In this document: piece by piece, positions 6,338 to 36,026 of the stretch
Position numbering within the stretch: the stretch's first letter is position 1
Layout of the letters: every line of letters begins with the position of its first letter
Source of the DNA: Psammoneis japonica
Lineage: Eukaryota
Length of the DNA: 64,000 nucleotides
NCBI GenBank assembly: GCA_008632985.1
Contig: QPGO01000016.1
Coordinates: forward strand, 282,840 to 346,839
Direction of reading: 5' to 3'
Notes under the pieces: generated by a model
Told to the model about the DNA's origin: nothing
Seen by the model: the letters and a program-made list of their open reading frames with translations, nothing else
Database searches by the model: none
Program-made: the position numbers and the translations under genes

Positions 6338-7600
6338 TCATGGCGACATGATGAAATCAAGTGCCGCAGGAAAATGACATGTTCTGGCATCACACACCAT
6401 GATGGGATTTGAGATTGGTCTTTTGTTTGCAGAGATGCGGAGTTTCACGACGACTCCAAAACACGGGCCACACACACAGCAGGAAGGACCATGCTTGTGG
6501 AGGCAAGCAACACGAGGAAAGAGACCTGTCTTGAATCTGTGCATGTCCAATTTTAGTGCAGACTCATTTTTCACTGAGTTCCCCAAACCTTTTTGTTGAA
6601 CTGCCTGTTCTGTCCCCAGTGCTTGCAGCAATTTTGCCATCCCCAGCAACCCCCCTGCAGCAAGTTTGCCATCCCCAGTGACCCTCTGCAGCCACACCCA
6701 GTGAAAAAGAGCTGGCATGACGTGGAGCCAAACAACCCCAAGCATCCTTCTTGTGCTTGATGACAACTTCGTCAAAGGAACTCTCTCGTTCGTCCAGGAG
6801 TTTCTCAGCCTCATCCAGCATCAGTCCTTCAGCCATGCGAACCAAGCATTCAGCATCGTTGCATTCTCCCGGAGGAAAAAAGCATCCCATGCCACAGTGT
6901 TGACATCCTCGGAGACCACTGGGCTGAAAGTAGAAACACCAAATTGACGGGACGGTTCAACAAGCAAAAAGAAAAGAACTGTGATCCGTCCGACCCACAT
7001 CCGCTGCAGATTTTTGTCTTCAGAGCCCAACAAATCCTCCAGAGGCACTCCCAGGGCCTCATTGTCTTCATCATGCTTGTTGCAATGAGCATGGGGATGT
7101 TGTTCTGGAGGTCCACCCCAGCGCTCGGCACATGCCATGGGATGCCGTTGAGCCAGTTGCTCTTCCGCAAGATGCTTTGCGACAGCACGACAATGATCTC
7201 GTGCGCATTCACTGAGTCCAGAAGGAATTGTTTCAGGATCGTCATCATCTGTCTTGGGAGGCTGAGCAACAGGAATGTCTTGTCCGTTTTCAATCGTGGT
7301 GCCTCCGACACCACGGATGATGCACACTTGACATGGCAGCATGTTGGGTTGATTCCAAGCTGCCAAATCAAGACAGACAGACTTGTTGTGAAGGACTGCA
7401 CTCTTGTCCTTGCTGTTCTTTTTAAAACAAGCTCGCTGGCAGTCCACAGAGCAAAAGTGCGCAACTTTGCAATGGGAACAGCAGCACTTCAGGCTTGTCA
7501 TTTCTTGTTCTTGTTTGCCGCAGCCAAGACAGGCATGGCGAGGTGGAATCGGAGGGTCCAATGTGGGAACATGACGAGCAAAGGGGTTGTTCACAAACAT
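6338..7600 (-). pseudogene. MYND zinc-finger gene, TpA-hypermutated
   Basis: CLGCGK..CSHCKVAHFCSVDCQR..H..VC MYND pattern; no Tyr in the 259-aa ORF 6821-7600; TGA at 6821-6823 with a further in-frame ORF (6338-6814) downstream. Confidence 0.65.
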
Positions 7601-7637
7601 GGTTGTGTTTTGAAATAAAGAGTGAAAACAGAAAAGC

Positions 7638-8836
7638 TGACAGGATTTGAGCAGGATTTAGGTGCGCGCGAAATGTCGCGCGCTGTTTAGTTTGCTGTGC
7701 ACAGTTTTGTGTGCTTTAGTTCCGCGCGTTCGCGCGCGATGTAGTTTGCTTTCGAGCCACAAGGCTCACAAGAATGAGGCTCGGTCTGCAGGTGAACCAT
7801 GCCGGATCGGATTGCCAGATCGGATTGCGTCAGAATTCCGTCAGTTGACAGGTGGAACCGGGTCGGATCACAGATCGGATTCGACATTTTGATGAGTCGC
7901 AAAACGATGTAAGTTTCAAGATTCCAAATTCTCAAGAACAACAAAGCTGAAATGGCGAACAACAGAGAGAGTGTGGCCATGATGCTTCACATCTTGTCAT
8001 GATGAGACGATGTGACAACAGAACTGTGCTGTTGTTGCTGCTTTACATGCTCACTTGACCGCATCATTGAGCATCATTGTCACTCAGTGTTTGCAGCACG
8101 CTGAGGAAGAAAAAGCCATCACTTTTGCAACTCAGAAACTGACGCTGTGTTTTCGCATTGAAATTTAGAATTGCATGACAAACACTTGTTGTTTTGCTCA
8201 TTCAATGTTTCTCCAACAAATCTTTACGGCATCATCGGTTTGACAAGCTGTTCTGTTGCCACACGACCTTTTTCATCTCCATTTCAAGCATGGGAAGAGC
8301 AAGGCTGCAATGCTGAGGAAGTTCTGTGCCCTCATGGCTGAATGTTGTGCCGCCCTGTGTCACAATCGTGTGATGTTGCGCCATTGTCGTGATGACGGCA
8401 TGGAATCTTCCAAATTCGATCCGACATCTGATCCGGATTTTCGGATCGGACGGTCTTCGGAGCAAAATGTTTTGCTCCGAAGACCGTCTGATCTGAGATG
8501 GCAGATCAGTCCCACGAAGGCCACGGATCAACTTTTTGACTTGATGGACTGACATTTTAATGGGTCATGAAGGAGTCAATCCGGCGATCCGATCCGGCTC
8601 GGTTCACCTGTAGACCGAGCCTTTTTGACTCGATGGACTGACATTTTAATGGGTCACGAAGGAGTCGATCCGGCTCGGTTCACCTGTGGACCGAGCCTGA
8701 CAACAGCAGCCCGATCATGCAGACTCACACGTCTTTCGGCTCCTGCGACGGTCTCTGAGCGGAGACTCATCTGCCATTTGGACAGCAGCAAGGAGTCATT
8801 GTTTGAATTCTTGCCATTTGCCTTCAATTTCTGTCA
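7638..8836 (+). repeat. 5' LTR (7638-7777 plus 8701-8836), split by a TIR element
   Basis: The two halves align end to end with the 276-bp 3' LTR. Confidence 0.95.
7778..8697. mobile_element. Non-autonomous TIR element, PIF/Harbinger-like, inside the 5' LTR
   Basis: 21-bp TIRs GGCTCGGTCTGCAGGTGAACC / GGTTCACCTGTGGACCGAGCC; 3-bp TSD TGA (7775-7777, 8698-8700); empty site present in the 3' LTR; many subterminal GATCGGAT/ATCCGATC motifs. Superfamily call is inference. Confidence 0.9.
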
Positions 8837-9384
8837 GATCAACAGTCTTGCTCATTGTCAACCCATTGAGCAACCGCCATCGTCGTCGTTGATTTGCCGA
8901 CGACGCCATTTCAATTCTGCATGGACCTCCGCATGCATTCTACATACATCGGCAAGTCTGCGCGCATTCAACACCAGGCATCGGCAGGAATTTAACGTCA
9001 CCGTCAAGTCTCCTTGCCGCTGGACATCTGGATTGATTGTGCTGCCTTTTGTCGCTGAAGACATAAATTCAACGGTCATGTCCAAGTCTGTCCTTGATCC
9101 TCATCCCTTCACACACCCACTCAACGGTTGACGGTCAAGAACCCTGCACATTCAAGGATCTTCGTTGCTAAAGACACACTTGTGTGTGCATGTCTTCATG
9201 GCCAAGAACTTGCACCCACTCTTTGGACTGCGGCTTTGCTGCCACTCTACAAGCACACCGAGTCTGTTGCACCTGATCCACCCCGGACCACTGGTGCTCT
9301 GCAGTTCTGCTGGGTCCACGAGGACGACTGTGAGAGCAAGTGGCCGTGATTGCAGCCTGCGTTGGGGCGAGGGTGTTTTCCCAC

Positions 9385-10298
9385 GACTTGTTCCAGACTT
9401 AGGTGGCGCGCACATGCCCCTTTTCGCAGAAAAAATAATTTTTTAATGCTTTATTCAACACCTAACATATTTAATAAAATTGAATATATTAATGGCTTCT
9501 AAGTAAAATAAACAGAATAAACTCGAACAAACAAACAGCCAAACCGGCCATGGCTTTCAGTGACCATGACGGCCCACTTTTTTCAGCCTTATGGAAAATT
9601 GAATGTCATGACCAGGATCTCCGTATTTGATATAGTCTGTGTCATCAACAACAATAGTGAAAATGCTTGTTGAAGGCTGCAGCGCGGCACAATAATGCTA
9701 AATCTGTCAGCAACAACAATTGAGCCTCTATTCACTCACAATTTGCCTCTAAGGACCATTTCTTTTCTATTACCATGTATATTTCCTCAATATATTCGAC
9801 TGATTCAAGTGTATCAATCGTTTATGCCTTCTAAACCGTGAAAAATGGTCCGAAGTCGACGCCATTGCGTGGGCTGAGCTACACTTCTTCTCACGTCGTC
9901 CTAAACTTATTAATCAACGGATGCTTTATTAGATCCGTTGAGTGTAACTCGTATTCGCGTATATAAACAAAATATTAATTATGCTATGTTAAAGACTTAA
10001 TTTATATATATTAATAATATTTTATATGTTTCTTCTTACATTTAGGCATATATAAATCGCTCATCGGAAAATTCGAGCTCTCAACTTACGGTACAATTTA
10101 GCGACTAATGACTGAGTCCATCAACAGTTTCGAATACATGGGTACACGCACAAGACAATTCTGTATGTACCCATAAAAACACATTTGTAAATTGTTATGT
10201 TTTTACTATCGAAAATGGTGCCGCAAGTGTGGACCGCGCGTTTCATGCAAAAAGGGTCATTTTTTCGCGCGTGAGTGCACCCAAGTCTGGAACAAGTC
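9385..10298. mobile_element. Non-autonomous TIR element with 4-bp TSD
   Basis: 21-bp TIR GACTTGTTCCAGACTT(A/G)GGTG; TSD CCAC (9381-9384, 10299-10302); AT-rich non-coding interior. Confidence 0.88.
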
Positions 10299-10692
10299 CC
10301 ACGTTTGTTCGTTCGTCCACAGCGCCCAACGCCTGCGTCAGCTGGCCAGCCTGATCGGGAAATCCAACCGATGTAAAATGAGAACGGTTCGGGGGTCTTG
10401 TCCACCTCCAGTCAGCTTGCCTGCAGGGGTTTGCAACCCGCTGCTCCACTCGCAAGCAACCCAAAGCGCCACTGGCTGCGGGTTCGGATGTGCCAGCACA
10501 ACTCTACGGACCGGACAGGAAGTTCAGCACTTGACAACGAACGGGATGACACAGCCCAGCGACTTCTGATTTTAAGATGGTTCAAGATTTCAAGTCAAGT
10601 CTGTTTCAAGTCAAGTCTGTTCTCACCCAAGTTTCAAGTCTGCCTTCGCATCCCAACCAGAATCGCTTGTTCTGACACCGCTTTTGTCTGCC

Positions 10693-13600
10693 ATGGTTCT
10701 CACTCGTCAGCAACAAACTGATGGTTTCGAGCACCTTGTTGGAACCGTGCTTGCCCAAGGTGCTGGAAGCCCTCTTCGTTTGGCTTTGACCCACGACGGC
10801 ACGGACTCGCATCAAGAACTGTTCACGTTCATGCCGTCCCAAATCAACTCGCTTGAGTGCGACAACGGCACCAATGTGATCTCTTTGTCCCATGGTTATG
10901 AGAACATGTCAGCAGCTCTAGTCAGTCTGCACATTGTCAAAGCACACAAAGGTCTTGATGTTGCCAATGACTCCTCGTTGTTCACGCATGAGGAGTTCCT
11001 TGCCTGCCGCCTCAGCCCCAACTGCATGTCGTCTGTGTCCGTCGGCAGCTCGCCCCTCGCACCTCCGCATGTCACGAACCCGACCAAGGCACGTGACCCG
11101 GTGCGAGACTTCAAGCGAGGCATCAAGCGTGACCCCACTGCTTTCACGGCTCTCAAATCCAACAAGCAGTGGCACACTTGGCACACCTCACTTGTGGCAC
11201 AAGCCCATGCCCAAGACGTCGAGTGCACCCTAGACTCGTCGTACAAACCGACCAGCCCCGAAGACAAACTGCTCTTTGCTGAACAGCAAAAGCACATGTT
11301 CGCCATCTTCGAACGCATCCTTCTCACCAACAAGGGCAAGGCTCTCATTCGCGAAAATGTGGGGTCTTCTGACCCCCAGACCGTCCACCGCGCCTTGTCC
11401 GAGTGTGCGCTTGCCTCCACCCGCGCATCTGTCGAGTCCTCCACCTTGCTCACGCACCTTGCCACCGCACGTCTTGGTGATGGTGCTTGGAAAGGTCCGA
11501 CCCACGGGTTCATCCTTCATTGGCAGGATCATTTGCGCAAGTGCGAGGCACTCATCCCGGCCAGTGACCACTTCTCTGAAGGACAGAAGCGCGTCATGCT
11601 CGAGAATGCCGCACATCCTGTCGAGGAACTCCGCGCCATCAAGAACCAAGCTGATCAGCATCGCGCGCAGAGTGGCAAGAGCCTCACACATGATCAACAT
11701 TGTGGCTTGCTCCTCTCCGCGGCGGCCCAATGCGACAGCGCGTTTCAACCCAAGACAACACCTCGAGCTCCCCGACACACCACATGCGCGCACAACGTCC
11801 ACTCCGAGGAGCCATCCGATGATGTGTTCCATGACATCAACAGCGACATTGACGTCCTTCAGGCCAACGCTGCCTGCACTCGCGGTCCCAGCCTCACCGG
11901 TGACCAATGGAAATGTCTCCCCCCCGACCACCAACGGATTTGGGATTCGTTGCCCCACTCCTCCAAGGCGATCATCCTTGAGCATTCTCGTCCGCCTCCC
12001 CGCAACCCGCGAGCCAGCAACTGCCATGAGTCCGTTGCGGCCAACCTTCACAACCAACAACTTGGGAGCGACGGTGATGTCAACTTGTCCAACACGACTC
12101 CTGCTGACTCTGGTGACCCCGCTCCAAATGTGGACGCCACTTCAGACAATCCCATCCTGGTGCACCTCACCAATCGCAAGCCACTGCCACCCGGTGATCT
12201 GCACCACCTGTTGTCTCCTGACCAAGCCTCCAATGCCAGTCGACTGGGCCCATCCGCCACTCCCTCTACCTTGCCTGCTCCCACAGATGACGTGGAACTC
12301 AACGGCCGCACTTGCCGCCGCGTTGACAACCACAATGTCGTTTGCTCTGCCTCCGCTCATCGCTCCACACGCGCTGGTGCTCCAGTCGATCGTGGAGCCA
12401 ACGGCGGCGTTGCTGGCGATGACGTTCGCGTCATTGCATGCACCTCTTGCCAAGTCAATGTTCAGGGCATTGACGACCATCAATTGGTGGACATCCCCAT
12501 TGTCACCGCTGGTGCCGTCATTGAGACACAGCGTGGTCCCGTCATCGCCATCCTCCATCAGTGCACATGCATGGGAAAGGGCAAGACCATTCACTCCTGC
12601 GGCCAGCTCGAATGGTGCAAACATGATGTCAACGATTGCTCTGTCAAGGTGCCCAACAGCTTGCAACGCACCGCCACCCCTGATGGCTGTGTCATCCCAA
12701 TTGACATCAAGGGCAGCCTGCCTTGCACTGCCATGCGACCCTGCACTGACGCCGAATGGGACACCCTGCCCCATGTCATCCTCACTGGTGATGACACATG
12801 GGACCCTTCCGTCCTTGATCACTCTGTCACTGACGACGACCAGTGGCACGACGCGATCTCTGACCTGCAGGACGATCCCACTGCCAACCTGTTTGATGAA
12901 TGTGGCAACTGCCGTCACCGTGTCGTTGTCAACAAGGCCATCATGTCCGCCTCCTTCTCTGCCGATCACGCGTCCGCCCTCGATGACCACCTCATTCCGA
13001 ATGACGACGTGTTCTGCGAGTGTCATCTGCACGCGATTGACCCCAAGGATGACAATGTTCCAACCCCGGAGCGCACTGTGCAGCCCAAGGACCCCCCCTT
13101 CGAGTCTCTTCGGCCTTGCTTTGGCTTCCTGCCTGCCGATGCGGTCCGTCGCACTTTTGACTGCACCGCGCAGTGCGTCCGCATGCCCGCCGGCACACAC
13201 CTTAGGAAGGCCTGCAAATCACCCAACCCCACCCTTAATGTGCACCGCCGCAACGAGCCTGTTGCCACTGACACCATTTGTGCCGACACCCCGGCCATCG
13301 ACTCTGGTCACACCAGCGCCCAACTGTTTGTTGGCACCGAGTCTACCGTCACTGACGTCTGCGGCACCAAAACGGACAAGGAGTTTGTCAACACACTCGA
13401 GGATCAGATCCGTGAGCGTGGTGCTCCATCCAAACTCATTGGCGACCGTGCTCAAGTTGAGATCAGCAACAAGGTGCTCGGGATCCTACGAGCCCTCTTT
13501 GTCTCCAGCTGGCAAAGTGAGCCTCACCAGCAACACCAAAACTTTGCCGAACGTCAATGCCAGACCGTGAAGCACATGGCAAACACTGTCATGGACCGTT

Positions 13601-16600
13601 TCAGTTCGCCTGCCCACACATGGCTGCTGGCGCTCATGTGCGTGTGCTTCATGCTCAACCACACAGCATCCCCACATCTCCACTGGCGCACGCCCCTCGA
13701 GACTCTCACTGGCTCCACCCCGGACATCAGCCCATTGCTTCGCTTTCACTGGTGGGAACCTGTGTGCTTCCACCTCGATGACTCCAATTGGCCGTCCGAA
13801 TCCCGTGAGTTGTGCGGACGCTTTGTTGGCATTGCTGAGCACGTCGGCCACCAGATGACCTTCAAGATTCTCTCTGACGACACTCAGAAGATCCTCTGCC
13901 GGTCCAACGTACGATCCGCTGCCACCGATCCTGCCGTTTGAAACCTGCATCTTGATCCTCCTGATGGGGAGCCACCTGAACCCATCATCAAATCTTGCCA
14001 TGACGACAACCCCGTCGATTCACCCAATGGGGAGATCAGGACACCCAAGATGCCAGTTTTTGATCCGCAAGACATCATCGGACGCACCTTCCTCATGCAG
14101 CCACAAGAGGACGGACAATGCCACAGAGCTCGCATCGTCAAGGCCGTTGAAGACCACGAATGGAAAGTGAACGGCAACCCTGAGCTCACTGAGTTCGTCT
14201 GCTCTGTCAACAACGATGAATGCGAGGAAGTCCTGGCCTGCAAGGACATCATGAATCACATTGAGCAAGAAGACGAAGACACTGCTGTTTGGAAATTTCG
14301 ACGCATTGTGTCACACGAAGGACCTCTGAAGCCTCATGACCCAACCTGGAAAGGCTCAAGCTACAACATCATGCTTCAATGGGAAAGTGGGGAGATCACG
14401 TCCGAGCCTCTTGCCATCATCGCCAAGGACGACCCTGTCACCTGCGCCATCCATGCACGAGAGAACGGACTTCTCGACACTGATGGCTGGAAGCGGTTCC
14501 GCACCATCGCGAGGCGCCAGAAGAAGCTGTTCCGCATGGCCAACCAAGCCAAGCTTCGCTCCTTCCGCACTGCACCTCGCTGCAAGTGCGGACACGAAGT
14601 TCCCCGGAACTGCAAACACGCCATGTCACTGGACGAACGCAACGGCAACCGCAAATGGGGAGACGCAACTAATCTCGAGATGGACCAACTCGATGAACAC
14701 GAAGTCATTCATGACTGCGGGCCCTCCGAGTCTTCCACTCCTCCTGCAGGACACAAGAAGATCCGAGTGCACCCGGCGCACGACGTGAAACATGACGGCA
14801 GCCACAAGGCACGACTCACAGCCGATGGGCACCTCACAGATGCACCCATCGACAGTGTCTGCTCCGGAGCAGTCTCCCTCCGTGGCCTTCGGCTGATGAT
14901 TTTCCTGGCCGAACTCAATGAGTTGGAGACATGGGCCACCAACATTGGCAATGCCCACCTTGAAGCCACCACCAAGGAGAAGCTGTGCATCGTAGCTGGA
15001 CCCGAATTTGGCAAACTCGAAGGCCACATTCTTGTCATCCACAAGGCCCTGCATGGACTGCGCAGCTCCGGCCTCTGCTGGCACGAGCGCTTCGCCGACT
15101 GCCTGCAAGCTGAAGGTTTCTTCCCCTGCCGTGCCGAACCCGACATTTGGATGTGCAGGAACGGCGACCACTGCGAATGCATTGCCGTTTGTGTGGATGA
15201 CCTCGCCATTGCCATGAAGGATCCTCAATCTTTTGTCGACACTCTCACGGAAAAGTGCAAGTTCAAGCTTGAGGGCACGGGACCGATTGAGTTCCATCCA
15301 GGCTGTGACTTTTCCCAGGATCCTGACGGTGCCTTGTGCCTGTCTCTGCGCAAGCACATCGAACGCATGGTCGACAGCTGCACACGACTGTTTGGGGAGA
15401 AACCTGCCACCAACGCCCTGTCACCTCTGGAGAAGGGTGACCACCCCGAACTGGACACTTCCGAACTGCTGGGGCCTGATGGCATTCAACAGCTCCAGTC
15501 TCTTGTTGGTTCACTCCAATGGGCAGTGTCCCTTGGCCGAGTTGACATTGCCACGGCCATCATGTCACTCTCTAGCTTCCGAGCTGCGCCCCGTCAAGGC
15601 CACTTGGATCGTGCCAAACGCGTCTGTGGGTGCCTCTCCAAGATGCGACACGGCGCTCTCCACGTTTGCACGGAAGAGCCCGACTGTTCGGATCTCCCTG
15701 CTCCGGCCCATGAATGGATGCATTCCGTGTGCGGCGAGGCAGAAGAGATGATCCTGAAGGACGCTCCACCGCCCCTTGGCAAGTTCGTCACCAGACGTGT
15801 TCCAGTCCCAGGTGACGCACAAAACAACAATCAGATTTTGAATGTAATTTATGCACATTTTAGCGCACACAGCATTTTGACAAAAATGCTCAAAGGGATT
15901 GACTTTTGTGGGCTTCTAGAGCATGAACATTTAAATGGTTTTTTGAGGGGCATTCAAATCCTCATGGGACATGTGTCACAAACTTCCTCAGCAGACTCAA
16001 TGCTGATTGTGCGCCAGCAGATTTACACTGAGATTCTTTTGCAGGTAGAAAACCTGCCAAGTGGCATCGCAGGAAGACACATTTAGGTGACATCCAAATG
16101 ACGGCAATGTTTTCGCCGAAAATCATCCGTTGTGTTACGAATCTTTTCACGCAATGAAAAACACAGATGGCACAACAACAATGACATTGCAACACTCACA
16201 TGAGTCTTGTCAGTGTTGCAAAACATTTGTGTTTGTACAAATCTGTGCTTTTGGTGGTGAAAGTTCGATCGCAAGTTAGGGACCGCGCAAAAATCGTGCA
16301 AATGTCGTTTTTGTGCACGATTTGGTTCACGTGCGGCTGGAACACGTCACCACCACCCACTGCGTCAATGCAAACTTGCACCATTGCATGCTCACCGGAT
16401 GCTCTGTCATGGGAATGCTCCACTTCCTCAACAAATTCCCTGCTGATTGGTTCTCTAAGAAGCAAGCCACCATGGAGACTGCGACCTGCGGGTCTGAATT
16501 TGTTGCCGCAAGGACTTGTGTCGAGCAGATTGTCGACCTGCGCATCACCCTGCGCTGCCTCGGCGTCCCGATCCGTGACATCAGTTGCATGTTCGGTGAC

Positions 16601-16921
16601 AACAAGTCAGTTGTGGACAGTGCCACCATCCCGCACTCCAAGTTACACAAGCGACACACCGCACTGTCGTTCCACCGTGTGCGTGAGGCAATTGCCTCTG
16701 GTCACCTTGAGCTCCACTTCATCGAAGGATCCCGCAACCCTGCTGACATTCTCAGCAAGCATTGGGGTTGCTCCCAAGTCTGGGACCTTCTCCACCCCCT
16801 CATGTTCTGGAACTTCATTCCATCCGAAGTCGAATCTGTTTCTGTGACTCCTCAAGCAAACTGGGGAGTGACAGGATTTGAGCAGGATTTGGGTGCGCGC
16901 GAAATGTCGCGCACTGTTTAG
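10693..16921 (+). pseudogene. Copia gag-pol polyprotein, inactivated
   Basis: gag FKRGIKRD; protease VDRGANGG; integrase VATDT..GDRAQVE..SEPHQQHQNFAE; RT KARL, NIGNAHL, KALHGL, VCVDD; RNase H SKKQATMETATCGSEF..NPADILSK. In-frame TGA at 13939-13941 (likely CGA->TGA) and an insertion at 15794-16348. Confidence 0.95.
15794..16348. mobile_element. Non-autonomous TIR element with 4-bp TSD, inserted at the start of RNase H
   Basis: 12-bp TIR GACGTGTTCCAG; TSD ACCA (15790-15793, 16349-16352); removing it restores the frame GKFVTTTHCVNANL. Confidence 0.9.
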
Positions 16922-17144
16922 TTTGCCGCGCACAGTTTTGTGTGCTTTAGTTCCACACGTTCACACGCAATGTAGTTTGCTTTCGAGCCACAAGGCTCAC
17001 AAGAATGACAACAGTGGCCCAATCATGCCGACTTGCACGTCTTTCGGCTCCTGCAACGGTCTCTGAGCGGAGACTCATCTGCCATTTAGACAGCAGCAAG
17101 GAGTTGTTGTTTGAATTCTTGCCATTTGCCTTCAATTTCTGTCA
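16869..17144 (+). repeat. 3' LTR (276 bp)
   Basis: TG...CA ends, preceded by the PPT and followed by the TSD. Confidence 0.96.
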
Positions 17145-17536
17145 AAAGCATCCGTGATCAACTTGTGAACCAGATCAATGTCCTCACTATTTTCGTCGAT
17201 CATCATCCACAGCGCATAGACTGACAGACAGTGTCGGAGGGAGTTCTCGCTCGCGCGCTCGAATGCCGCGCGATGTCGGAATGACGTGTTCCGGATAGGG
17301 GCAATAGGTGTGTGACGCGACGCGTCGTGCAATTTTCCGTTTTCGGTGTGTGAACTTTACAGATTTTTTTCTTGCATACATACATAACTTTCTCATGTTG
17401 CGATTGCAGCAATGGCGTCGTTGTTTTGTTGTCATCGTCCATAGAGAGCGTCTTGTGTGCATCGTGTCTAGTGTGTAACTCTATGTATGCGTCCTTTGAT
17501 ACTGATATTTTTATATAGATAAGTTTTGAAAGTAAA

Positions 17537-19014: not shown

Positions 19015-19188
19015 CTAGCTACAGTAGACTACAGAGGTTGCCACGGAGGCGGCATTTTCAACAATCATTTCTCTAACTTGTACATTATTAAGCATGATTG
19101 TTGCCCAACCGATACGGTACTTTATACTTTATTGCTTTTGTGCTTGATCGGATCCATATATGTTTACCCTACTAATCTGCATCTTTGC

Positions 19189-23295: not shown

Positions 23296-24049
23296 CAGAA
23301 AAGGACTTTTTTTAATACTACAACACAATGGTATATCTAACAGCAGCACCAACAGCGACACAATACACACAGTAATGTCAAAGATGATAGGCCCTTTGCA
23401 GGTGTTGTTGTGTTGCTGTCTCGTTTCGTTATGCAGGAAAAAAAGATCGCGCAAAGATTCAATCTTATTGTATACGAAAATTCAAACATAATAATAAAGA
23501 ATTGTCTCTCAGTACGGAATTGTAAGAATGTGTTCAGGAACAGTCGCACGCACGGCGGTCAGATGTAGACGAGCGGAAGAGGTTGTTGATTGCGTTTTGC
23601 AATGATGATTTACGATTTCAGCCAGCCCTGAGCAACATTTTTTTCTGGAACAGCAGGTCTGCTCAGTTTCTAAACATGGTGACTCTCCAACAATGTGGAG
23701 TGTTGCAGTTGACCTCCACTCCCTTCTTGGTTGGCTGTTCCTTGCAGATTCTGAACTGACCGACGACAACGGCCTGCCAGCTGCTGCTGGCACAACCTCA
23801 GAGGTGCACGCCAGGACAGTGATGGCAACATGGCACCAGTCAGAAAAAAAACTGAGTGAAGAGTGATCCATGAGATCCTTTGACAACCAAATGTGCCAAC
23901 GTGTGTCCACTGGGTGTGTGACCACATGGTTGTGAAATGAGAAGAGAAAACTGTGAGGCAGATTGGCACGAGAGAGCTGCCAACTGGCCAACAGCAGATG
24001 AGGGGGGCACAACCACACAGCAGCCATTCAATGAAAGTGCCCCATCAAT

Positions 24050-24420
24050 CAGTGGGGCATGGCAAGCCCAGCCTGCCTTGGCAAGTGCACCCATTGGGTT
24101 GATGATGCCAGGGGTGTTTCTGGCACAAAACAATCTTGTTGACCTCCTGATGCTGGCTTTGGATTGCAAAGTGTCGGGTGTCAACATTTCATCAGTGCTC
24201 CTTGGCAGGAATCTGACAGTTGGTCATTTTAAGAGTGCCAAAAAGGAGCTGTTAATGCAGAGGGGCATTGGCCCCTTTTGAGAGAAACCAAGTTCTTTCA
24301 AGACAGATGGAAGGCATGGGGTTTGTTTGGCAGCAGCAGCACATGTGACAAATTCCACCTCAGTGGAGCCAGCCACTGTCAGGGGTTGCACTGCACAAAC
24401 ATGAGCAAGAAAACAGCCTT
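24050..24420 (-). mobile_element. Degenerate copia RNase H relic of a second family
   Basis: QPLTVAGSTEVEFVTCAAAAKQ..SVLKELGFSQKGPMPL, then NVDTRHFAIQ and PGIINPMGALAK in shifting frames. Confidence 0.75.
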
Positions 24421-24534
24421 TCAGTGCAGAGTTGGCAGCAAGCACACATTGTTCTGGCAAAAGCCATGATGTGCACAGTGGTCAAATGCAGGAGCCAAGA
24501 AGGCAATGTTGAGCATGCATTGTGCATGAATTGC

Positions 24535-25277
24535 AAAAGCTGTGCAGCGCAGAAAGATGTGGGGCAAAGGTTGTCAGCAAAAGCTGCAGAGGGTGCAGAA
24601 AGCTGCAGGGAACAGGTTTTGCTCAAATGCTGTGGGGTGCAGGTTTTGCACAAAAAGCTGCCAGGTGCAAACAGCTTTGGATGCAGGTTTTGCACAAAAG
24701 CTGCAGGGCGCAAAAGTGAATCTGTGGGGTGCAGGTTTTGCAAAAATGCTGTGGGGTGCAGAAAGAAACTGTGGGGCACAGTGTTTTTCACAAAACATTG
24801 CAGAGTGCAAAAAAGTTGCAGGGTGCAGGTTTTGACACAAAAGCTGTGGGGTGCAGGTTTCATGCAAAAAGATGTGGGGGTGCAGGTTTTGCACAAAAAG
24901 CTGCAGGGTGCAGATTGTGCACAACAAGCTGTTGGGTGCAGAAAGCTGCAGGGTGCAGGTTTTGGGTTTTGCACAAAAAAGCTGCCAGGTGCAGAAAGCT
25001 GTTGGGTGCAGGTTTTTGCACAAAAAAGCTGCCAGGTGCAGAAAGCTGTGTGGGGTGCAGGTTTTGCACAAAAAAACTGCCAGGGGTGCAGAAAGCTGCG
25101 GGGTGCAGGTTTTGCACAAAACGATGCAGGGTGCAGAAAGCTGCAGAGTGCAGGTTTTGCACAAAAAGCTGTGGGGCACACAAAGCTGTGGGAGAGCAGG
25201 CTTTGCACACAAAGCTGTGGGTGGGGTGCAGAAGCTGTGGGGGTGCAGGTTTTGCTCAAAAGCTGTGGGGTGCAGAG
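24535..25277. repeat. Degenerate minisatellite of two alternating modules
   Basis: Repeated GGGTGCAGGTTTTGCACAAAAAGCTG and GGGTGCAGAAAGCTG modules over about 740 bp. Confidence 0.9.
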
Positions 25278-25289
25278 ATGAACCTGCCT

Positions 25290-25640
25290 GGACAACAAGA
25301 GCGGTTGTCATTGCACATTTGCCAGCTTTCCAGATTCAGTCAGAACATCTCCTGCAAGATGACCACCTTTCTAAAAATGCATTGTTGAGCCTCATGCTCT
25401 TGACTTCATCTGTCAGGTGTCATTGAAACAAGTGTTGAGCCCCCTGAGCTTGGTGTCAGTTCCCCAATGTCACGTGCTGCTGCTGCTGCAGAGCTCAAGC
25501 TGTTCAAACCAAGATCAAGATGTTGTGAGCTTGTGATGTTGCTGACATGACTGGGGAGACTGTCCATCATGAGGGCACCCTCAAATGACAACAGGTTGCT
25601 TGGCAAAGTGTTTTGTGCCACTTTGGCGAGGTCAGCCAAG
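25290..25640 (-). pseudogene. Possible LRR gene relic
   Basis: LPSHVSNITSSQHLDLGLNSLS and LAGDVLTESGKLANV resemble LRR units; heavily decayed. Confidence 0.4.
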
Positions 25641-26234
25641 TTTCCTGCTGACAGCCCATGTTTTCACAAGCCTTGAAGACTTGCAGATGTTCATGGTTTG
25701 AGTCCAAAAGACTCACGGAGATCCAGCAAGCCTTTTTGTTGGAATCACTCAAATGAGTCAAGCCAGGAGGAGCAAAAAACCCAAAGGGCTGTTTCAAGTC
25801 CATTGCCAAGTTGGTTGTCATTTTCCAGGTGCATGCATTGAAGATTTGAGACCTGGAAAAGTGGTGGCAGCACACTGCTCAATGTGTGTTTTCAGACAAA
25901 TTCAATCTCCCAAGTTTGTCTCCACCACAAAAAGCTCATTTTGTGGCTTCCCATTCAGTCAACAGCCCATGCAGTCAAAGGACCAGAGTCTTGGAAGGTT
26001 TCCAATGTTGGCAAAGATGGCTCTGTCAATGTCATTGCTCTGTCCCCAGCAACACAGCTTCTCACAAGAAGGTTTGGCAGCGAGACCACATCAAGTCCAG
26101 GGTGGCTGCCATCTCCAGGTCATTGATGAGCAACAAGTGGGGCAGCAAGGTGCCAATGGATTGTGTGGAATGTTCCCATTGCAAGATGAGCCAGCGCATC
26201 TCCCACTGCCCACTGAGTCATGGGCAGCGGTGCC

Positions 26235-26720
26235 TTGGTTCAAGCCAACATTGACATGCCTGTCATTGTTCAGCTGAGCCTGTTGCTGATCTGCAATTGC
26301 TGCAACACTCAGTGCCAAGCACACTGTGACCAAAACAGAAGCTCCTTCAATCTGTCCCATTTTCAAAGTCATGTTCAATGCCCAATCCCAAAACAAGTGT
26401 CATTGCAGCTGAAATCAAAAACAACATGAGCATGGCAGAGTTGGCCAGTGCCACCCAAATCAACTCAAATGAAACATGCTTGGCTGACAGAGGCACAGCG
26501 TTGGATCTGAAGGTCCTGTGTCAGGCCAAGCTTGATGTTGGCACACCAAAATTAGACCACCAATCCCTTGACACCCTGAAAGGCAACAATGGCTCCCAGT
26601 TGTCCATTGGAAACAATTGTGGCCAGTGACTGGAGTCTTGCCCAGTGTCCCATGACCCTTGACTGGAAACAAGCCACACACCCGGCACTGTTCTTGTTGG
26701 AATCACCCCCTTTAAGACAG
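26235..26720 (-). pseudogene. Decayed paralog of the 5' part of the Ca2+-ATPase
   Basis: Aligns to about 22755-23280, e.g. IEGASVLVTVCLALSVAAIAD vs [21 protein letters not shown]. Confidence 0.85.
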
Positions 26721-29138: not shown

Positions 29139-32100
29139 GGATCAACCTCCAGCCTTCACGAGGTTTGTTCCTTTGCGAAGGTCGAATGAGAAAGCTTTCT
29201 TCGATGTCGTGTGTGACGTTGCGACGTTGCGCACGCAGGAAGAATGGAATTCGAAATTTTGATGACGCCATCAAGTTCAACAAACCCGGCTTTTCAGATC
29301 GTGCGCGGTTTTGAATGTACTACTGCTGTACTGCACTGGGGCCCCATCAGACTCTACCGGATGTGCACTGTGCTGTAGAGTGCATGTCTGTCTGGCTTCT
29401 TTTCGTTCCATTTTCTAGTGTGTGTCCCTGGCCATTTTGTTCAAACGCTTTTTCGCAGCAGGGGATTTCAGATCTTGTGGTCACAAAACCCAAAAAAAAT
29501 CCACAAGGTCTCATCGGTTGGCGCCTGCTGGTTTCCATTGAGGGTGCAATTTTTTCTGTCATTTTCTGCACAAGCAATTCTTTGTGCGGAGCCCCCAAGT
29601 GCTCTCTCTTGTGCTCATTTGGTGGCATGAGGGTGATGGCTGCAGAGACAAATGCAGCAAGCACAATGCCGTCATCTTCAAAGCTTTTTCAATGCTGGCA
29701 TGTTCCCAGCACAATCCAGTCGGATTTTGGTCAAGATTGCCGCTGTCCCCACCAAATGTGGGCCTGCTTTGTCTCTTTGTCAGCATGGCTCAGGCTTCTG
29801 CTGGTGCCATTGAAAAAGTTGGTGACAAGGTTGAGGGGCTCAAAGTTGGCAACCAAGCTTGCAGCCATGTGGAAGAGCTGGTGGGCTTGCCAGGGGCTCC
29901 TCTGCAGAGCACGCAGCAAACCCAAGAATTCTTTGTGCATGGGGGCAAGTTGGCAACCAAGCTTGCAGCTGTGCAGGGCAGCTGGCAGGCTTGCCAGGTG
30001 CTCCACTGCATGGCGCACTGCTGCCAAAACAAAACTTCCTGTTGTTGCAGCAAAATCCAAGAATTTGAGTGTGGAGGAAGCTGCTTGGTGCACTGCTGCA
30101 CCGCTGGCGGGTGTGCTGCCACTGCTTGCAAAAGACTGATCTGTCACAGAGTTGGGCAAAATGCTAAAAACGAAGAAGGTGGCATTTGGCATGTTGCACA
30201 CTGCAGCGCACACACAAACAAGCACTTTGGCTGGCTTTTCAACTCACTCAACCTCCTGTGGAGAGAGAGGTGTCTCAAGGAGCAAGCAGAGGCAAGCAAG
30301 CCATTGGGCATCGCAACAGCAGCTGGTTGCAAGAAAGAAAGTGCAGAGTCACAAAATAAAAACACATGAACAGGAAAAGATTTGCAATGGTCGTGCAAAC
30401 CAGTTTGGCTCAACCCCCCCCCCCAAATGCACCAAAAAGTCTGACAAAGCCAAGATGCCAAATGCAGCAACACTGTGCCAACTGCCAACACATCTGTGAA
30501 ATGGACTTGACCCAGGCCCATTTCAGGGATCTGTCACTTGCTCACATTTTCCTCATGTTGACCCCAATGTTGCACAATGTGTTGCACAAAAAGTGTGGAA
30601 GAAGACACTGGCCCATCTTGCTGAAATCTGTTGATCTGGTGGCTTGCAGCCAATCCATGACAAGACAGACTTCAAACCAGCAGAAGGGGTTGGTGAGGCT
30701 CATGCTCTCATCTTCTTGACAGTGCAAAAGCAACAGGGCAAGGCTGCAGCTAAAAACTGAGTCCTGCAGAAAGAACAGCACAGCCACTCTCTAGATGTGT
30801 GTGGAGTTCTGGGCAGTGCTGGCACTTTCTGCTCAATGGGTGGACTTCTTGGTGCACAAGAATGGCCCAGTTGACCAAAGGTGGTCAAAAGAAGGCAGCT
30901 TGGTTGTGCAAAACATGGCATGCAAAGGAAGGCACCAATGTCAGTTGACCAATGCTCTCCTTTCAGTGCCCAGCAGCACAAAACACACATGTGCTGCTTC
31001 AGCGACTCAGCTCTCAGTCAGCAGCCCGCCATGCACTCCCAGACAAATGGCGCCAGACTCTTTGGTGTGCATGAAAAAACTTTCCACTGGCTCTCCAATG
31101 CCTTTTGTCAAAAACATGTTTGCACACCCTGCAGCTCAAATGCAGGTGAACATCAGCGGGGCCCCTGGTTGGACAACTGACCAGCAGGTTCATCTTCCCC
31201 AAACCTTCAGTCTGCTTGAGTCAGCAACCACCAACCACAGTGCTGAGACAACATTGCTGCCCTTGTTGCCACTGCATTGTCCCTTGAAAAGGCCCTGCAG
31301 TTGTTTTCATTGCAGCCCACTCAGAGCAAATGTTGCAGCTCAGCATTGTTGCAAGAGAAAGCTTGACTGCCAGCAAAAAGAAATGGAAGCCCCCAAAACA
31401 TCTCACAGATGGCCATCCAAAGGGCAAATGGTGGTCATGATCAAACTTGGTCAGCCTCAAACACAGCACACCAACAGCCAATTGATCATGCAGGACAATG
31501 TCAGGAGCAGATTCAAGGCCTTTGTCGCACATTTGATGTGTGCTTTGACTGGTGGCAGGTGCCATCGATGTGCTGTGAAAACATTCCAAGACAAGCCAAC
31601 AAATGAGGTGGAGCCCACCGTGCACCCACAGCTCACATCACATCAAGATGGTGCCAACAACCTTGCCAAAGATGTGATGGCACAGCCAGAGAGAGCTGAA
31701 ACCATCCTGCCAAAGAACCCGCCAACAACACACAAGCTCATCTTCTTTCCACAAAGACAGCCAGCCAGAGCTCAGCTTGAGAACACCAAGACACACTCCA
31801 AAGTTGAAAGTCCTGGCTGACACAAGCTCTGACTCAGCAACACACATGTTTGTCAACTGCCAATGGCACATCTCCAACTCCTGAAAGATGTCAAGTGTCC
31901 TGACAAGATGGGAGGCCACAAGATGTTGGATTTCTGATGCAGCCACTGCTGCGAGCTGCAGTTTTCTCTGTGCAGTCAATGACCATCTCCTTGACATCCT
32001 TGTGTGAGAGAAAAGGTTTTGCAAAGACATGGAGAAGGACAAAGCAACACATGTGATGCTTGCAATGTTGATTTTGCTGTGCACATGGAGGGCAGTGGTG

Positions 32101-33624
32101 GTGTGCTGGTGTGGACTGGGTTCTTGCTGGTTGCCCTCCAATGTGTGGCCTGCTCCACAGCACTTGGTGCACAACACAGAAAAGCACAAAAGCTGTCAGC
32201 CCCTGGTGGAGCACAGATCTGGCAAGCTCTGTGTGCCTCAGCTGCAAACTGCATGTTCCACAACCCAAGTTTTCTTGCACCTGCTCTTGCAAAATCATGT
32301 GCAACATTGTGAAAAGACACACACAAGACATTTTCCATGCAAGAGGATGTCATTGGCTCACTCTTGAAGAGCAGGTGCAGTCACTGACGATGCTTCTGAC
32401 TAAGTCACTTGGGTGTGACTCACCTGACTTGTCATCTGGCAGTGCCCCAGAGTGAAAAATGCTGGCAAGTGAGTCAAAAATCAAAAGAGGAGCAACTGCA
32501 TGATTCACACGGGGAAGAAGCATTTGCCGTGAGTGAAGAGCAAGTGCTGGAAAAACTTGCAGGACAAGAAAGGAGCACAAAAATGGGGTCTGGGCACAAA
32601 AGCAAGAAACACTTGGCAAGACATGATGGAACAAAGCAAGGCTTTGCTGCAGCTGCTGACTTGGTTGCTTCTCATGCCAGACTCTCTCCTCTGGCTGCAC
32701 CATCTTCCACATCCTCTCAGAGCAACAAAAGAGTGTGCCAAGCTGCTCATCCAACTGTGGAGACCTTCTTGTGCAACAAATGTTAGCAACCTTGTGGCAC
32801 TTGCTGCACAGCCTTGCCAAATGTCTGGAAAGTCAGAGGCGTGCACATGGCACATGTGCGCCTCTTGTTGTCAAGCATCTGGTCTGTTTTTGTCATGTTG
32901 CTGCAGTCTAAAGGGCACCTTTCAGCCAAAATGGGCCAGGCCCTTCCACCAGCTGACAGGAATGTTTTCTCTCTCCACCAGCTTCCTTTGAGCTGGTTTC
33001 TCTGCTGCTCATGCTGGGCTGGCTCTCTTGTGTCCAGTGTGTTGTGGTGCAAGATTCCCAGTGTCAAAAAATGAGCACAGATTTTTGTGAAGTTAAACTT
33101 GGCAGGTGGTGCAAAAACCTCCTTCATCAAGAAGAGAAGCCCCTGTCTCAAGCCAGAATGAAAAAGTTGTGCCTTGCAAGCAAATGACTTTGGACCACAA
33201 ATGCTCACACATCTCACCCTCCTGCTCACTCAACCAGTTTCATCTTGATGACTCTGCCACCATTGCAAACTTGACTCAGTTCTAAGTTGAAAGGCACTTT
33301 CTGTGCCAGCTCTGATTCGCGTCCTGTGCATGGAGAGCGGCCAGCCAGCTTGCCATTTGCTGTGAAAGTCACAATGGTCATGAGTGTGTCTGTCCACAAG
33401 AACAATGACCGTGGGCATGTGTGATCTTTGAACAGTCATCAACATTGACACATGTCTTGATGAGATTCATCATCTGTCCAAAATGACCTCTCCATGAATG
33501 AAATCGGCAGAGGTCATTGCTGCACTCCATCCCAAGCTCATGTTTTTCCAAAAATCAGATGAGAGAATGACATCTCCAGAACACAACATGCTTTTTTTCA
33601 CTTGCTCAAAGCACAGCAAAAGAT

Positions 33625-34208
33625 GAATGACACAAAGTCATCTTGTCATGAAGATGTCACACAAACCATGATGATTTGTTGGCGCCTGCTGTTGGAGATG
33701 GATTGCCGCCTGCTTCCAAGCAAGCAACGCTGGAGACTGAGCAGATGTCACATGCTTTGAGAAGGCCAAAAGAACATGACGCAATGAGAAATGCTCTCGA
33801 CTGCAGCATTGAGCCATCTTGTGGCAATGACAACATCTCATCCTCTGTCGAATGTTCAACGACTTGTCGAAAATTCACAAAATGAAATTAATGCACAGCA
33901 TGGCAAAGCCTGTTGGAGATCAATCTGATGGAGAACTCCCCAAAGGAAGGCCATCAAAAACAACAATGCACGTGCGGTTTCAACAGTGTGACAATGGAAC
34001 AAAAACCACCATCTTGGGCCCGCTTCTCAAGCCTTCATCCGAAATGAGCAAGGACAAAAAGGAAACAATCTGGCAGCAGCAATCCGATTTTCATGTGTTT
34101 GCCAAGGACACTGCAAGCATTTGCTGTCATCAAGGTTGGTTGTCAGAGAATGACAGTGGATCATGCACCTCAACGTCATGCAAGGTTTGTAAAAAGTGCT
34201 CTTCTTGG
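33625..34208 (+). pseudogene. Truncated, hypermutated copy of the gene at 37453-38351
   Basis: KPVGDQSDGELPKG..LGPLLKPSSEMSKD shared with the intact copy; ends at the duplication junction. Confidence 0.88.
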
Positions 34209-34449
34209 TGCAGTTTTCTCTGTGCAGTCAATGACCATCTCCTTGACCTCCTTGTGTGAGAGAAAAGGTTTTGCAAAGACATGGAGGAGGACAAAGCAAC
34301 ACATGTGTGATGCTTGCAATGTTGATTTTGCTGTGCACATGGAGGGCAGTGGTGGTGTGGTGTAGACTGGATTCTTGGCTGCCCTCCAATGTGTGGCCTG
34401 CTCCACAATGCTTGGTGCACAACACAGAAAAGCACAAAAGCTGTCAGCC

Positions 34450-36026
34450 TCAGTTTGGTTTTACCACGGGATTCCCCAAAATTCCCCGGGATTGCCACCT
34501 TTTGCCATGATTTTCCACGGGAACCATGATTTCCCGGGGAATCACCATGAACCGTGCTTCGTCACATGCACGCCACACACATGAACAAAAAATTGCACAT
34601 TGGCAATTCCCTGTGCTTCCCTTCTCATACATTTCTTCATCTCCCACGTGCCGGGACGTGCCGCAGGAGCCAGACAATCAACAGACTGCAACAAAAATGG
34701 GCAACATGCCATGGCGCGCTCGCATCCCATTTGTGACGGCTGTTGTCTGTCAATCATGACACCGTTCAATGCACTCAATGATGTCAATTAAACGGGATCC
34801 ATGACACAAAACACAAGATGAAATGTGATTGCACATGTGCAGAGTGGCAGCGCAGATGGGTTCCAGCCCCAGGCGGGACTCCGTGTGACATTGGGCCCGC
34901 AGAATTCTGCGTGCGAGCTCCGCAGCAAATTTGTGCTGCAATGAAAACACAAAAGATCGCCAACAGAAAAAGAGGCAATTTTGTGAATGCATCTCCTCCT
35001 TCATGCTTGGAGCACATCATTGACAGTTTGCCCGGGCATGTTCTTCAGACATCAAAGAACATGCCCAGCGCATTTTCATTCTCACAAATGTTGAAAACAG
35101 AGAGCCTTTGGCTTCACAAAACAGGGAGTGTGAAACAATTTTGTAGAATGTCACATGCAGAAATGCACGTGCGCGACATGCAACGTGATCCAAAAAACTG
35201 TTGATGTCACAGTTCAGCAGTGCGAGGTCCCACCTGGAGCTGGAACGCGCCCGCAATTGAGCCATCAGTTGTCAGTTTTTCTTTTGTCATGCAGCCACAA
35301 ATGCAAGCCACAAGGTGCACAGCGAAGGCCAAGGCAGAAGCAGAGCCATGCACAGCCAATAAAAACAACATGGCGGATTGAACGGTCACCCTCATTCTTC
35401 CAATTTACACATCTCATGTGCAGAATGAAGGGGATTGTTTAGTTCACTCTTTTGTCGTGCACCCAGAAAGGCAAGCCACAAGGCATCCAGTGTGAAGGAT
35501 GAGGCAAAATGGGAACTGCACATGGTTGATGAAAATGTGGCAGATTGATTGACAATGTTCATTCTTCCCTTTGACCTGTCTCATGTGCAGAATGCACTGC
35601 ATCATTTTTTCCTTCTTGTGTCGTGTGGTCACAAATGCAAACCACAACGGCTCTAGAGCAAAGGCTGCAGCAAAAACAGAGCCGTGCATGAGCAATGTAA
35701 ACATGTGTGATTTAATGGCAAAGTTTGTTCTTCCCTTGCTCTGTCACAAGGGGACGCTTTGTGTTGATTTGTCAATGCATCCATCATGGTCAGTGGTGGC
35801 AGAGCCTGGCTTTCTGGTTGAATGTGTCAAAAGCACAACCACCCACAAAACACAAGACGGGAATCACCGTGCTGCACTCACATTTTGTTCCTTCCCCTGA
35901 CCCCTTTCAGTCGTTCCTTCCCGCCAAATCACCCTCATTTCCCGGGCATTCCCCAAAAGGGCAAGGCAATCCCCCCTTGCCCTTGCCACATTTTGAGGAA
36001 TCCCCAAATGGGCAAAACCAAACTGA
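34450..36026. mobile_element. Non-autonomous TIR element, Mutator-like
   Basis: TIR TCAGTTTGGTTTT(A/G)CC; 10-bp TSD GCTGTCAGCC (34440-34449, 36027-36036); empty site in duplicate unit 1 at about 32192-32201. Confidence 0.88.

Follow-up and report, generated by a model that had tools for sequence, protein, structure and literature searches.

What process leaves the two long terminal repeats (LTRs) of a single retrotransposon insertion differing almost exclusively at pyrimidine-purine (YpR) dinucleotides? The question is raised by an LTR retrotransposon of the Ty1/copia type, flanked by a target duplication of 5 bp and located at positions 7638-17144 of a stretch of the Psammoneis japonica genome (assembly GCA_008632985.1, contig QPGO01000016.1, 282,840-346,839 of the forward strand). 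This single 64-kb stretch, hereafter the window, was the basis of the study, and all positions below refer to it. Taking together the LTR pair, the relatives of the element and the dinucleotide composition of the window, we consider it probable that this is a dead, high-copy diatom copia element under chromosomal mutagenesis confined to silent repeat domains, a process that removes both self-complementary YpR steps, CpG and TpA.

Divergence of the LTR pair

The LTRs start with TGACAGG and end with TCTGTCA and are flanked by a short target-site duplication, as is typical of copia elements. Identical copies of the 5-bp AAAGC on both flanks indicate that both LTRs stem from one integration. The 5' LTR is split by a 920-bp nested element with terminal inverted repeats (TIRs), which was absent from the initial annotation of this DNA. 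The features on which the comparison relies are as follows (o/e, observed/expected ratio):

7633..7637, + strand: target-site duplication AAAGC, left copy, read directly and identical to 17145-17149
7638..7777, + strand: 5' LTR, first part, starting with TG; 94% identical to 16869-17008, gap-free, with nine transitions, all YpR
7778..8697, no strand assigned: nested 920-bp TIR element, ~30-bp inverted ends, TGA duplication at 7775-7777/8698-8700; TA o/e 0.11, CG o/e 0.93
8698..8836, + strand: 5' LTR, second part, ending with CA; 93% identical to 17006-17144, with nine YpR transitions and one transversion
16869..17144, + strand: 3' LTR, 276 bp, TG..CA, located by repeat finder and pairwise alignment and preceded by a purine-rich tract
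17145..17149, + strand: target-site duplication AAAGC, right copy

The initial annotation had counted 19 differences between the 276-bp LTRs by eye, and gap-free alignment returned the same number (9 + 10), comprising 18 transitions, all at YpR steps, and one transversion (8721 A versus 17029 C). This 18:1 ratio is unusual against the 2:1 expectation (P = 0.005) and, with YpR making up ~0.485 of identical LTR sites, the probability that 18 of 18 transitions fall in YpR is ~2.2e-6. Among the 71 aligned YpR steps of the pair, 15 differ: eight are CG/CA steps, with CA always in the 3' LTR; two are TG/CG steps, with TG in the 5' LTR; two are TA/TG steps, one in each direction (7659/16890 and 8779/17087); and three are CA/TG doublets, in each of which the 5' LTR carries CA and the 3' LTR carries TG. 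Both the TA/TG pair and the three doublets had been described before and were recovered by alignment and step-wise tally. Within 16954-16968 of the 3' LTR, five CG-to-CA changes are packed into 15 bp on one strand.

No comparable excess was detected in two control pairs. In a genic paralogue pair (42010/43868), 53 of 149 transitions were at YpR steps (expected 0.32, p = 0.21), and in a repeat pair outside depleted DNA (57694/62294) the count was 10 of 30 (p = 0.9). The tandem paralogous ORFs (open reading frames) at 41687-42967 and 43512-44831, ~69% identical, have an ordinary spectrum of 149 transitions and 139 transversions. As the initial annotation had anticipated, dating by LTR divergence gives too great an age, with 19/276 differences overall versus 1/276 outside YpR transitions, and such dating would be inflated in genomes of this kind.

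Ancestral states of the LTR differences

Family copies among the contigs of sequencing run X1, which belongs to a sample whose runs contain the sequence, were used to polarise the variable sites; 40 of 1,119 variable places were listed, four of them in the LTR, and 4 of the 19 LTR sites were polarised. At 17021, 96% of the family depth reads G, marking a CG-to-CA change in the 3' LTR, a case of ordinary CpG decay. For the doublet 17015/17016, T makes up 80% and A 58% of the family depth, such that TA accounts for at least 38% of depth and CG for at most 20%, which favours a TA over a CG ancestor. Position 17024 has CA in both LTRs and TA in 57% of the family depth.

Unambiguous CpG changes were one-sided in each LTR, with 8 G>A and 0 C>T in the 3' LTR (p = 0.008) and 2 C>T and 0 G>A in the 5' LTR. 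Since a CG ancestor at the three doublets would require both LTRs to have changed on the strand opposite to this bias, a TA ancestor is favoured, and under that reading all 12 changes of the 3' LTR lie at purines of the + strand. The 18 LTR transitions are thus probably made up of 10 CpG-derived and 8 TA-derived changes. Private CpG changes of the interior, among the listed sites (8921, 13054, 14818 and 16794), are all G>A, as are the eight of the 3' LTR.

The simplest alternative is ordinary decay of methylated CpG, in which the two TA/TG sites would be due to chance or to deamination at non-CpG methylation, and the doublets would be CpGs hit once in each LTR. It draws on the CG that is left in one LTR at 10 of the 15 variable steps, on the ancestral CG at 17021 and on an independent-hit estimate that, with 12 steps left intact, 10 hit once and 3 forming doublets, allows ~1 chance doublet. 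Set against it, 2 of 10 TA-step positions carry a TA/TG difference, compared with 0 transitions at 134 non-YpR positions (Fisher 0.004), the doublets are oriented against the CpG strand bias of each LTR, and the family letters at 17015/17016 favour TA. The initial annotation had reasoned that this decay would suffice if all variable sites were ancestrally CpG; the two TA/TG steps, the doublet with TA in the family and the orientation of the doublets say otherwise. Together with the window-wide TA depletion and tyrosine losses described below, which point to a separate TA-consuming process, this makes CpG decay on its own an unlikely account.

It is similarly improbable that ectopic gene conversion from other family copies imported pre-existing variants into the LTRs. 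The family is certainly large, with 15,099 contig pieces of run X1 aligning to the element, and is polymorphic at the same kinds of site, and the five CG/CA differences in 15 bp of the 3' LTR look like one tract. Yet the strand-consistent pattern spans the whole 3' LTR and not one tract, changes private to the 920-bp TIR element and to the interior are absent from all other contigs, and conversion would leave the YpR-restricted variants unexplained, only placing their origin in other chromosomal copies.

Direction of change in the coding region

The interior of the element allowed the direction of change to be read from conserved codons. Its coding features are:

8837..16868, + strand: internal region of the copia-type element, with two further insertions inside; RVT_2; tblastn homology over 12322-16865
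14743..15378, + strand: RVT_2 reverse transcriptase domain (PF07727, E = 4e-19), residues 232-443 of ORF 14050-16086

Alignment of 120 relatives, obtained by tblastn against 10297-16868, yielded 492 conserved columns, of which the element has kept 430. Tyrosine was retained in 0 of 23 columns versus 430 of 469 for other residues (Fisher 3e-23), every non-tyrosine residue type being 80-100% kept. The 23 tyrosines have become cysteine (n = 15), histidine (n = 5), phenylalanine (n = 1), tryptophan (n = 1) and leucine (n = 1), and the conserved tyrosine of the reverse transcriptase YVDD box reads cysteine in translation (15190). A MAFFT-based count agrees: of 358 columns, 95 had changed, most often by Y>C (n = 10) and Y>H (n = 5).

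The 62 changed columns comprise 45 unambiguous single-step transitions, 8 single-step transversions, 2 ambiguous and 7 multi-step changes. Among the transitions, 25 are TA to TG/CA, 16 are CG to TG/CA, 3 are TG/CA to CG and 1 is of another kind, placing 44 of 45 at YpR steps (P ~1e-12). All 16 polarised C>T/G>A changes fall within CpG, which, together with the CG deficit and TpG/CpA excess of the depleted blocks, is the signature of methylated-CpG decay. The A:T-to-G:C changes are almost confined to TpA, the polarised A>G/T>C events having T (n = 25), C (n = 3) or A (n = 1) as their 5' neighbour. The direction of loss is therefore TA to TG/CA; C-to-T change at CpA would raise TA, yet TA vanishes. 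Over-correction by a T:G glycosylase was set aside on the 3 CpG gains versus 25 TA losses, and UV and alkylation signatures were rejected, transitions outside YpR being almost absent.

Across 79 related metagenome loci, TA o/e had a median of 0.72 and a minimum of 0.31, which indicates that depletion is not intrinsic to this type of element. Two metagenome contigs from other projects, L030 and L070, showed 51/32 and 17/35 Y>C/Y>H changes and tyrosine retention of 0.39 and 0.47, respectively, while the other 77 loci retained 0.57-0.83, with at most 6 Y>C and at most 14 Y>H changes among the loci listed. This partial loss of tyrosine indicates that the phenomenon also exists outside this assembly. 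Both contigs encode copia-type reverse transcriptases of other families, with TA o/e of 0.31 and 0.33 and GC of 0.52-0.53; L030 has ~65% DNA identity to the window. Several of the other 77 relatives are CpG-poor (whole-locus CG o/e 0.10-0.24) and yet all 77 keep tyrosine retention of at least 0.57, a further argument against CpG decay as the cause of the 23 lost tyrosine codons.

Depleted blocks in the window

Dinucleotide o/e was mapped in 500-bp bins over the window. Genic DNA had TA o/e of ~0.55 and CG o/e of ~1. Repeat-like blocks with sharp edges stood apart from it, with TA at 0.00-0.2, CG down to 0.03 or lower and TG+CA at 1.4-2.1:

6501..7637, no strand assigned: older depleted block, the insertion target of the element; TA o/e 0.03-0.07, CG 0.43-0.49
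10501-17000: element block; TA o/e 0.00-0.21, CG 0.71-0.94
23501..26500, no strand assigned: depleted block; TA 0.00-0.16, CG 0.03-0.13 from 24001 and 0.49 in 23501-24000, TG+CA 1.7-2.1
29501..37000, no strand assigned: largest depleted block; TA 0.00-0.12, CG 0.00-0.75
49001..50000, no strand assigned: depleted block; TA 0.00-0.03, CG 0.16-0.17
60501..62000, no strand assigned: depleted block; TA 0.00-0.09, CG 0.11-0.21

Over 10300-16868 of the element, TA o/e is 0.08-0.11 and GC 54-57%. With TA nearly gone and CG mostly kept, TA loss runs ahead of CG loss in the element. Its GC content is 54-58% (10300-16000) versus ~48% around it, matching ~240 A:T-to-G:C changes; in the older blocks, where CG has been lost too, GC is back near 48-50%.

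The largest block provided a comparison between confinement to domains and response to repetition. It contains the repeat pairs 31957-32201/34209-34449 and 32191-34208/36026-38030, and in the second, 2-kb pair, TG/CA of copy 1 is matched in copy 2 by TA at 25 steps and by CG at 33, the reverse case amounting to 2 TA and 8 CG steps. Nearly all of the steps that copy 2 has kept lie past the block edge at ~37000. Seen along copy 2 (36026-38030), the left half is without TA and CG, and the right half, adjoining ORF 37722-38351, keeps both. A boundary common to TA and CG loss that cuts through a repeat suggests a chromatin-domain effect rather than homology sensing. Two further sequences in the window are repeated yet undepleted: a 918-bp TIR element nested in the retrotransposon (word depth 3,800-6,000, where a single-copy contig has ~38) and the pair 57694/62294.

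Loss was also dependent on sequence context. Against a neutral ratio of 0.55, ATAN/NTAT is almost absent from the blocks (9 versus 842 outside), and TTAG/CTAA and TTAA survive best (42 versus 200 outside). The five TA steps left in the LTRs are all TTAG or GTAG. For CG, TCGA is the most and GCGC the least depleted context in the window.

Lacking TAA and TAG, TA-free DNA opens long stop-free frames on both strands. Such frames, of 110-350 codons, overlap on both strands at 10684-16921, 24349-25423 and 29402-36918, with no Pfam domain outside the copia genes. A Pfam search of 54 stop-free frames of the other depleted blocks gave none above cut-off, the block 23501-26500 having no Pfam domain, and a weak Pex16 match fell below cut-off. 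A further possibility is that selection on transposon RNA acted against CpG and UpA, as in RNA viruses evading host sensors or nucleases. CpG and UpA are the two dinucleotides known to be suppressed in many RNA viruses, but selection of this kind would not replace 23 conserved tyrosines, including that of the reverse transcriptase catalytic box, and the strongest depletion lies in non-coding blocks without a recognisable gene. We regard it as extremely unlikely.

Nested insertions and timing

Besides the 920-bp element in the 5' LTR, two insertions lie in the interior, bringing the nested insertions of this copy to three (7778-8697, 9379-10296 and ~15787-16345):

9379..10296, no strand assigned: nested 918-bp TIR element, AT-rich and resembling a miniature inverted-repeat transposable element, 21-bp inverted ends; TA o/e ~0.8, CG o/e ~1.1
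15787..16345, no strand assigned: third insertion, ~559 bp, approximate ends; joint 15786->16346 with loose ends 15791/16345, homology gap 15791-16355 versus metagenome relatives

The 920-bp TIR element is of particular value in separating chromosomal change from editing of a transposon transcript. Its TGA target occurs once in the 3' LTR and twice around the element, and its five best-supported differences from other X1 copies are three TA to TG/CA and two CG to TG/CA changes. A DNA-type TIR element bearing the same changes indicates that they did not arise by editing during reverse transcription. The initial annotation had likewise attributed the LTR differences to chromosomal mutagenesis and not to such editing, and this attribution is sustained on two counts: the LTRs of one insertion marked by its target-site duplication differ, and the DNA-type element nested within it is affected alike. 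The inverted ends of the 920-bp element differ by a TG/CA doublet, and it contains an internal tandem duplication of ~90 bp (8532-8622/8621-8698). Other copies of the retrotransposon join 9378 to 10297, that is, they are without the 918-bp element, which either is of very recent origin or is spared by the process.

This evidence bears directly on A-to-I editing of double-stranded transposon RNA by an ADAR- or ADAT-like activity, fixed by reverse transcription, with only the CpG changes being chromosomal. The A-to-G/T-to-C changes after T/U on either strand do resemble duplex editing, and the interior TA loss (~95%) exceeds that of the LTRs and could predate integration. However, two LTRs copied from a single RNA could not come to differ at TA/TG sites; the DNA-type TIR element, with its 3-bp duplication, has the same loss and private TA to TG/CA changes; and TA and CG loss share block edges. 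ADARs also accept A as the 5' neighbour, which is all but unused here (1 of 29 polarised A>G/T>C events). RNA editing is accordingly a very unlikely source of the TA loss. ADAR-type hyper-editing as such was rejected on the TA/TG differences between the LTRs and the same loss in the TIR element. APOBEC-type editing of cDNA (GG/GA context) was rejected too: 9 of 9 polarised G>A changes follow C, and the two LTRs do not share the changes.

Under the TA-ancestor reading, the LTRs had at least eight TA steps at integration, and about half have since been lost in each. Parallel changes in both LTRs would be invisible if flanking bases decide the outcome. Among the interior sites listed (10297-16868), no TA-type change was private to this copy. 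Part of the process acted after integration; for most of the TA loss we infer the timing, and the LTR pair cannot show the bulk interior loss to be post-integration.

Sequence accuracy

Misreading of modified CpG and TpA bases as transitions, during base calling or assembly, would likewise give a domain-limited, transitions-only, two-motif pattern, and 0.42 of the sampled words of the element were present in run X1. Against such an artefact, an X1 contig (word depth 37.6) matches 7400-7667, inside a TA-free block, without differences; this depth in 31-letter words would imply accurate reads. Polymorphism between TA, TG and CA among copies is present inside X1 contigs, and the same Tyr-to-Cys/His pattern recurs in L030 and L070 from other projects. 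Transitions dominate heavily where X1 contigs differ from the window (A>G, n = 229; T>C, n = 255; C>T, n = 230; G>A, n = 209), each transversion class amounting to 15-36. Run X1 may be the sample behind the window assembly and is not fully independent of it, but we consider an artefact highly improbable.

A further X1 contig, of single-copy depth (33.9), connects 7619 with 17144 by way of 10 other letters. Its stretch over 7400-7619 departs from the window by 18 letters and 7 gaps (~8% diverged, inside the depleted block), and the contig is either an empty-site allele or a paralogue.

Proposed mechanism and comparison with known systems

The pattern as observed, including its direction, its restriction to blocks and its presence in a DNA-type element, could be produced by two arms, presumably in methylated blocks and with the participation of an enzyme. 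Arm 1 would convert CpG to TpG/CpA by C-to-T change, as from deamination of 5-methylcytosine (5mC), and may be enzyme-assisted given that the changes occur in one-strand runs. Arm 2 would convert TpA to TpG/CpA by A:T-to-G:C transition and would be faster than arm 1 in this element. Our best guess for arm 2, held with low confidence, is deamination of adenine in DNA with a strong preference for a 5' T on either strand; an alternative considered is that thymine at TpA is oxidised to a base that mispairs. The 5'-neighbour order T, C, A resembles what we take to be the preference of TadA-type deaminases. The 19 LTR differences would then represent the post-integration share of both arms, and the end state, as in the older blocks, would be DNA with almost no CG, no TA and TG + CA at ~2x the expected level.

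More tentatively, and with considerable doubt on our part, the two arms could belong to a repeat-directed genome-defence mutator of diatoms, or of one diatom lineage, of a previously undescribed kind that acts on silenced chromosomal domains and flips both 5mCpG (C-to-T) and TpA (A:T-to-G:C). Such a mutator would erase tyrosine codons without creating TAA or TAG stops. Its TpA arm would need either a natural DNA adenine deaminase that prefers a 5' T or one activity on 5-methylpyrimidines (5mC and T), for example oxidation to mispairing formyl bases; a single activity of the latter kind would explain why all 12 inferred 3'-LTR changes are on one strand.

A number of observations weigh against chromosomal mutagenesis directed at both steps in silent repeats. 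Of the variable LTR steps, 10 of 15 need nothing beyond CpG decay, and 15 of the 19 LTR sites are without polarisation among the listed places. Repetition alone is insufficient for depletion. The strand runs of the LTRs are local at best, given that no block-level TG versus CA strand skew was found in most depleted blocks; the weak skews at 10297-12300 (-0.18, p = 0.00085, C-rich) and 29501-31950 (-0.10, p = 0.021) are no stronger than that of genic 17150-23500, and a hand count on the changed-column list gave no significant runs of TG-type or CA-type outcomes in the interior. The interior TA loss may have been inherited from already mutated, trans-mobilised progenitors. The flank preference of the window, with the exception of ATAT depletion, is not seen in L030 or L070. 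From the interpretation in the initial annotation, the post-integration and YpR-only character of the changes and the rejection of reverse-transcription editing are retained, but its scope is narrowed by the share of steps that plain CpG decay covers and by a possible contribution of gene conversion.

Repeat-induced point mutation (RIP) consists of C-to-T change mainly at CpA and creates TpA. As known from Neurospora and other Pezizomycotina, RIP is like the process described here in being transition-only, in acting on repeated or silent chromosomal DNA, in its local one-strand runs and in inactivating transposons. It differs in that TpA is here destroyed, an A:T-to-G:C arm is present and duplication alone is insufficient. 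In the depleted blocks, the RIP indices were 0.06-0.10 for TpA/ApT and 1.47-2.05 for (CpA+TpG)/(ApC+GpT), compared with thresholds of >=0.89 and <=1.03 quoted in PMC7884421. Neurospora-type RIP was rejected, the indices being reversed and a duplication trigger being at odds with the undepleted repeats and with the ~37000 edge inside a repeat.

Decay of methylated CpG is like arm 1, with C>T/G>A only at CpG and CG o/e down to 0.03, but does not cover the loss of TA. A comparison for the CpG arm is offered by the TCG-type hypermutation of Pucciniomycotina, as mentioned in PMC12730594. Transposons are methylated in those diatom species that have been studied, and many diatoms have DNMT4 enzymes, which are related to RID and have no known function (PMC9998398). 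The fossils of ADAR editing and the APOBEC G-to-A editing of retroelements share with our case clustered transitions, but take place before integration, leaving LTRs identical, and APOBEC contexts are not CpG; a DNA-type element is affected here as well. The only described DNA-level route from TA to CA/TG known to us is very-short-patch repair in E. coli, which Bhagwat and McClelland reportedly connected with the rarity of CTAG in 1992, and in which T:G-mismatch repair, evolved against 5mC deamination, turns T:A to C:G at look-alike sites. That system is bacterial and limited to one pentanucleotide; here, TA is lost in all contexts, and TG/CA-to-CG gains, which such repair ought to promote, number 3 versus 25. 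A GC-biased T:G repair of this type is accordingly disfavoured as the source of arm 2.

Full-text literature searches, subscription journals not being covered, brought up no account of TpA-to-TpG/CpA loss in transposons, whether of diatoms or of other organisms. The CpG arm is ordinary; the TpA arm and the joint end state without CG and TA are, to our knowledge, undescribed. A context-specific A:T-to-G:C mutator that acts on DNA and is confined to silent repeats, if true, would be a new mutational process and possibly involve a new DNA-modifying enzyme. We know of no natural DNA adenine deaminase, and one would be of interest for base editing. For diatoms, the process would be a candidate means of inactivating transposons. 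Its signature, opposite to that of RIP, would be missed by RIP indices and misjudged by CpG-only models. The spurious long ORFs of TA-free DNA could also mislead gene callers into over-prediction.

Structure and relatives of the element

The copia-type assignment of the reverse transcriptase is borne out by 1,290 homologues, with PF07727 in all 120 of those listed. The 1,085-aa ORF upstream of the reverse transcriptase, where an integrase would be expected, gave no Pfam match; in this upstream part, long relatives do align, from 12322 (tblastn). The ~559-bp insertion splits the RNase H-side coding region and is missing from other copies and from distant relatives.

The abundance of the family in run X1 was not mirrored elsewhere: no other copies of the element were found within the window, a degenerate LTR-end pattern found no family copies in metagenome_contigs or viral_contigs, and a protein-based metagenome scan returned other families only (<=68% DNA identity). 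Among the matches listed for ORF 14050-16086, relatives reached at most 66% protein and 68% DNA identity. Diatom copia-like (CoDi) retrotransposons were reportedly described by Maumus et al. in 2009, and the present element is like them in its copia-type reverse transcriptase and diatom host, with relatives abundant in aquatic metagenomes; this likeness is one of reverse transcriptase type, the closest relatives found having at most 68% DNA identity. An ESM Atlas search with a host SDR gene was uninformative about taxonomy. The host genes of the window have their best matches in diatoms, including a P-type ATPase 61% identical to Nitzschia and Ditylum proteins, and the window also encodes a protein with DUF6824, a domain that we take to be associated with diatoms.

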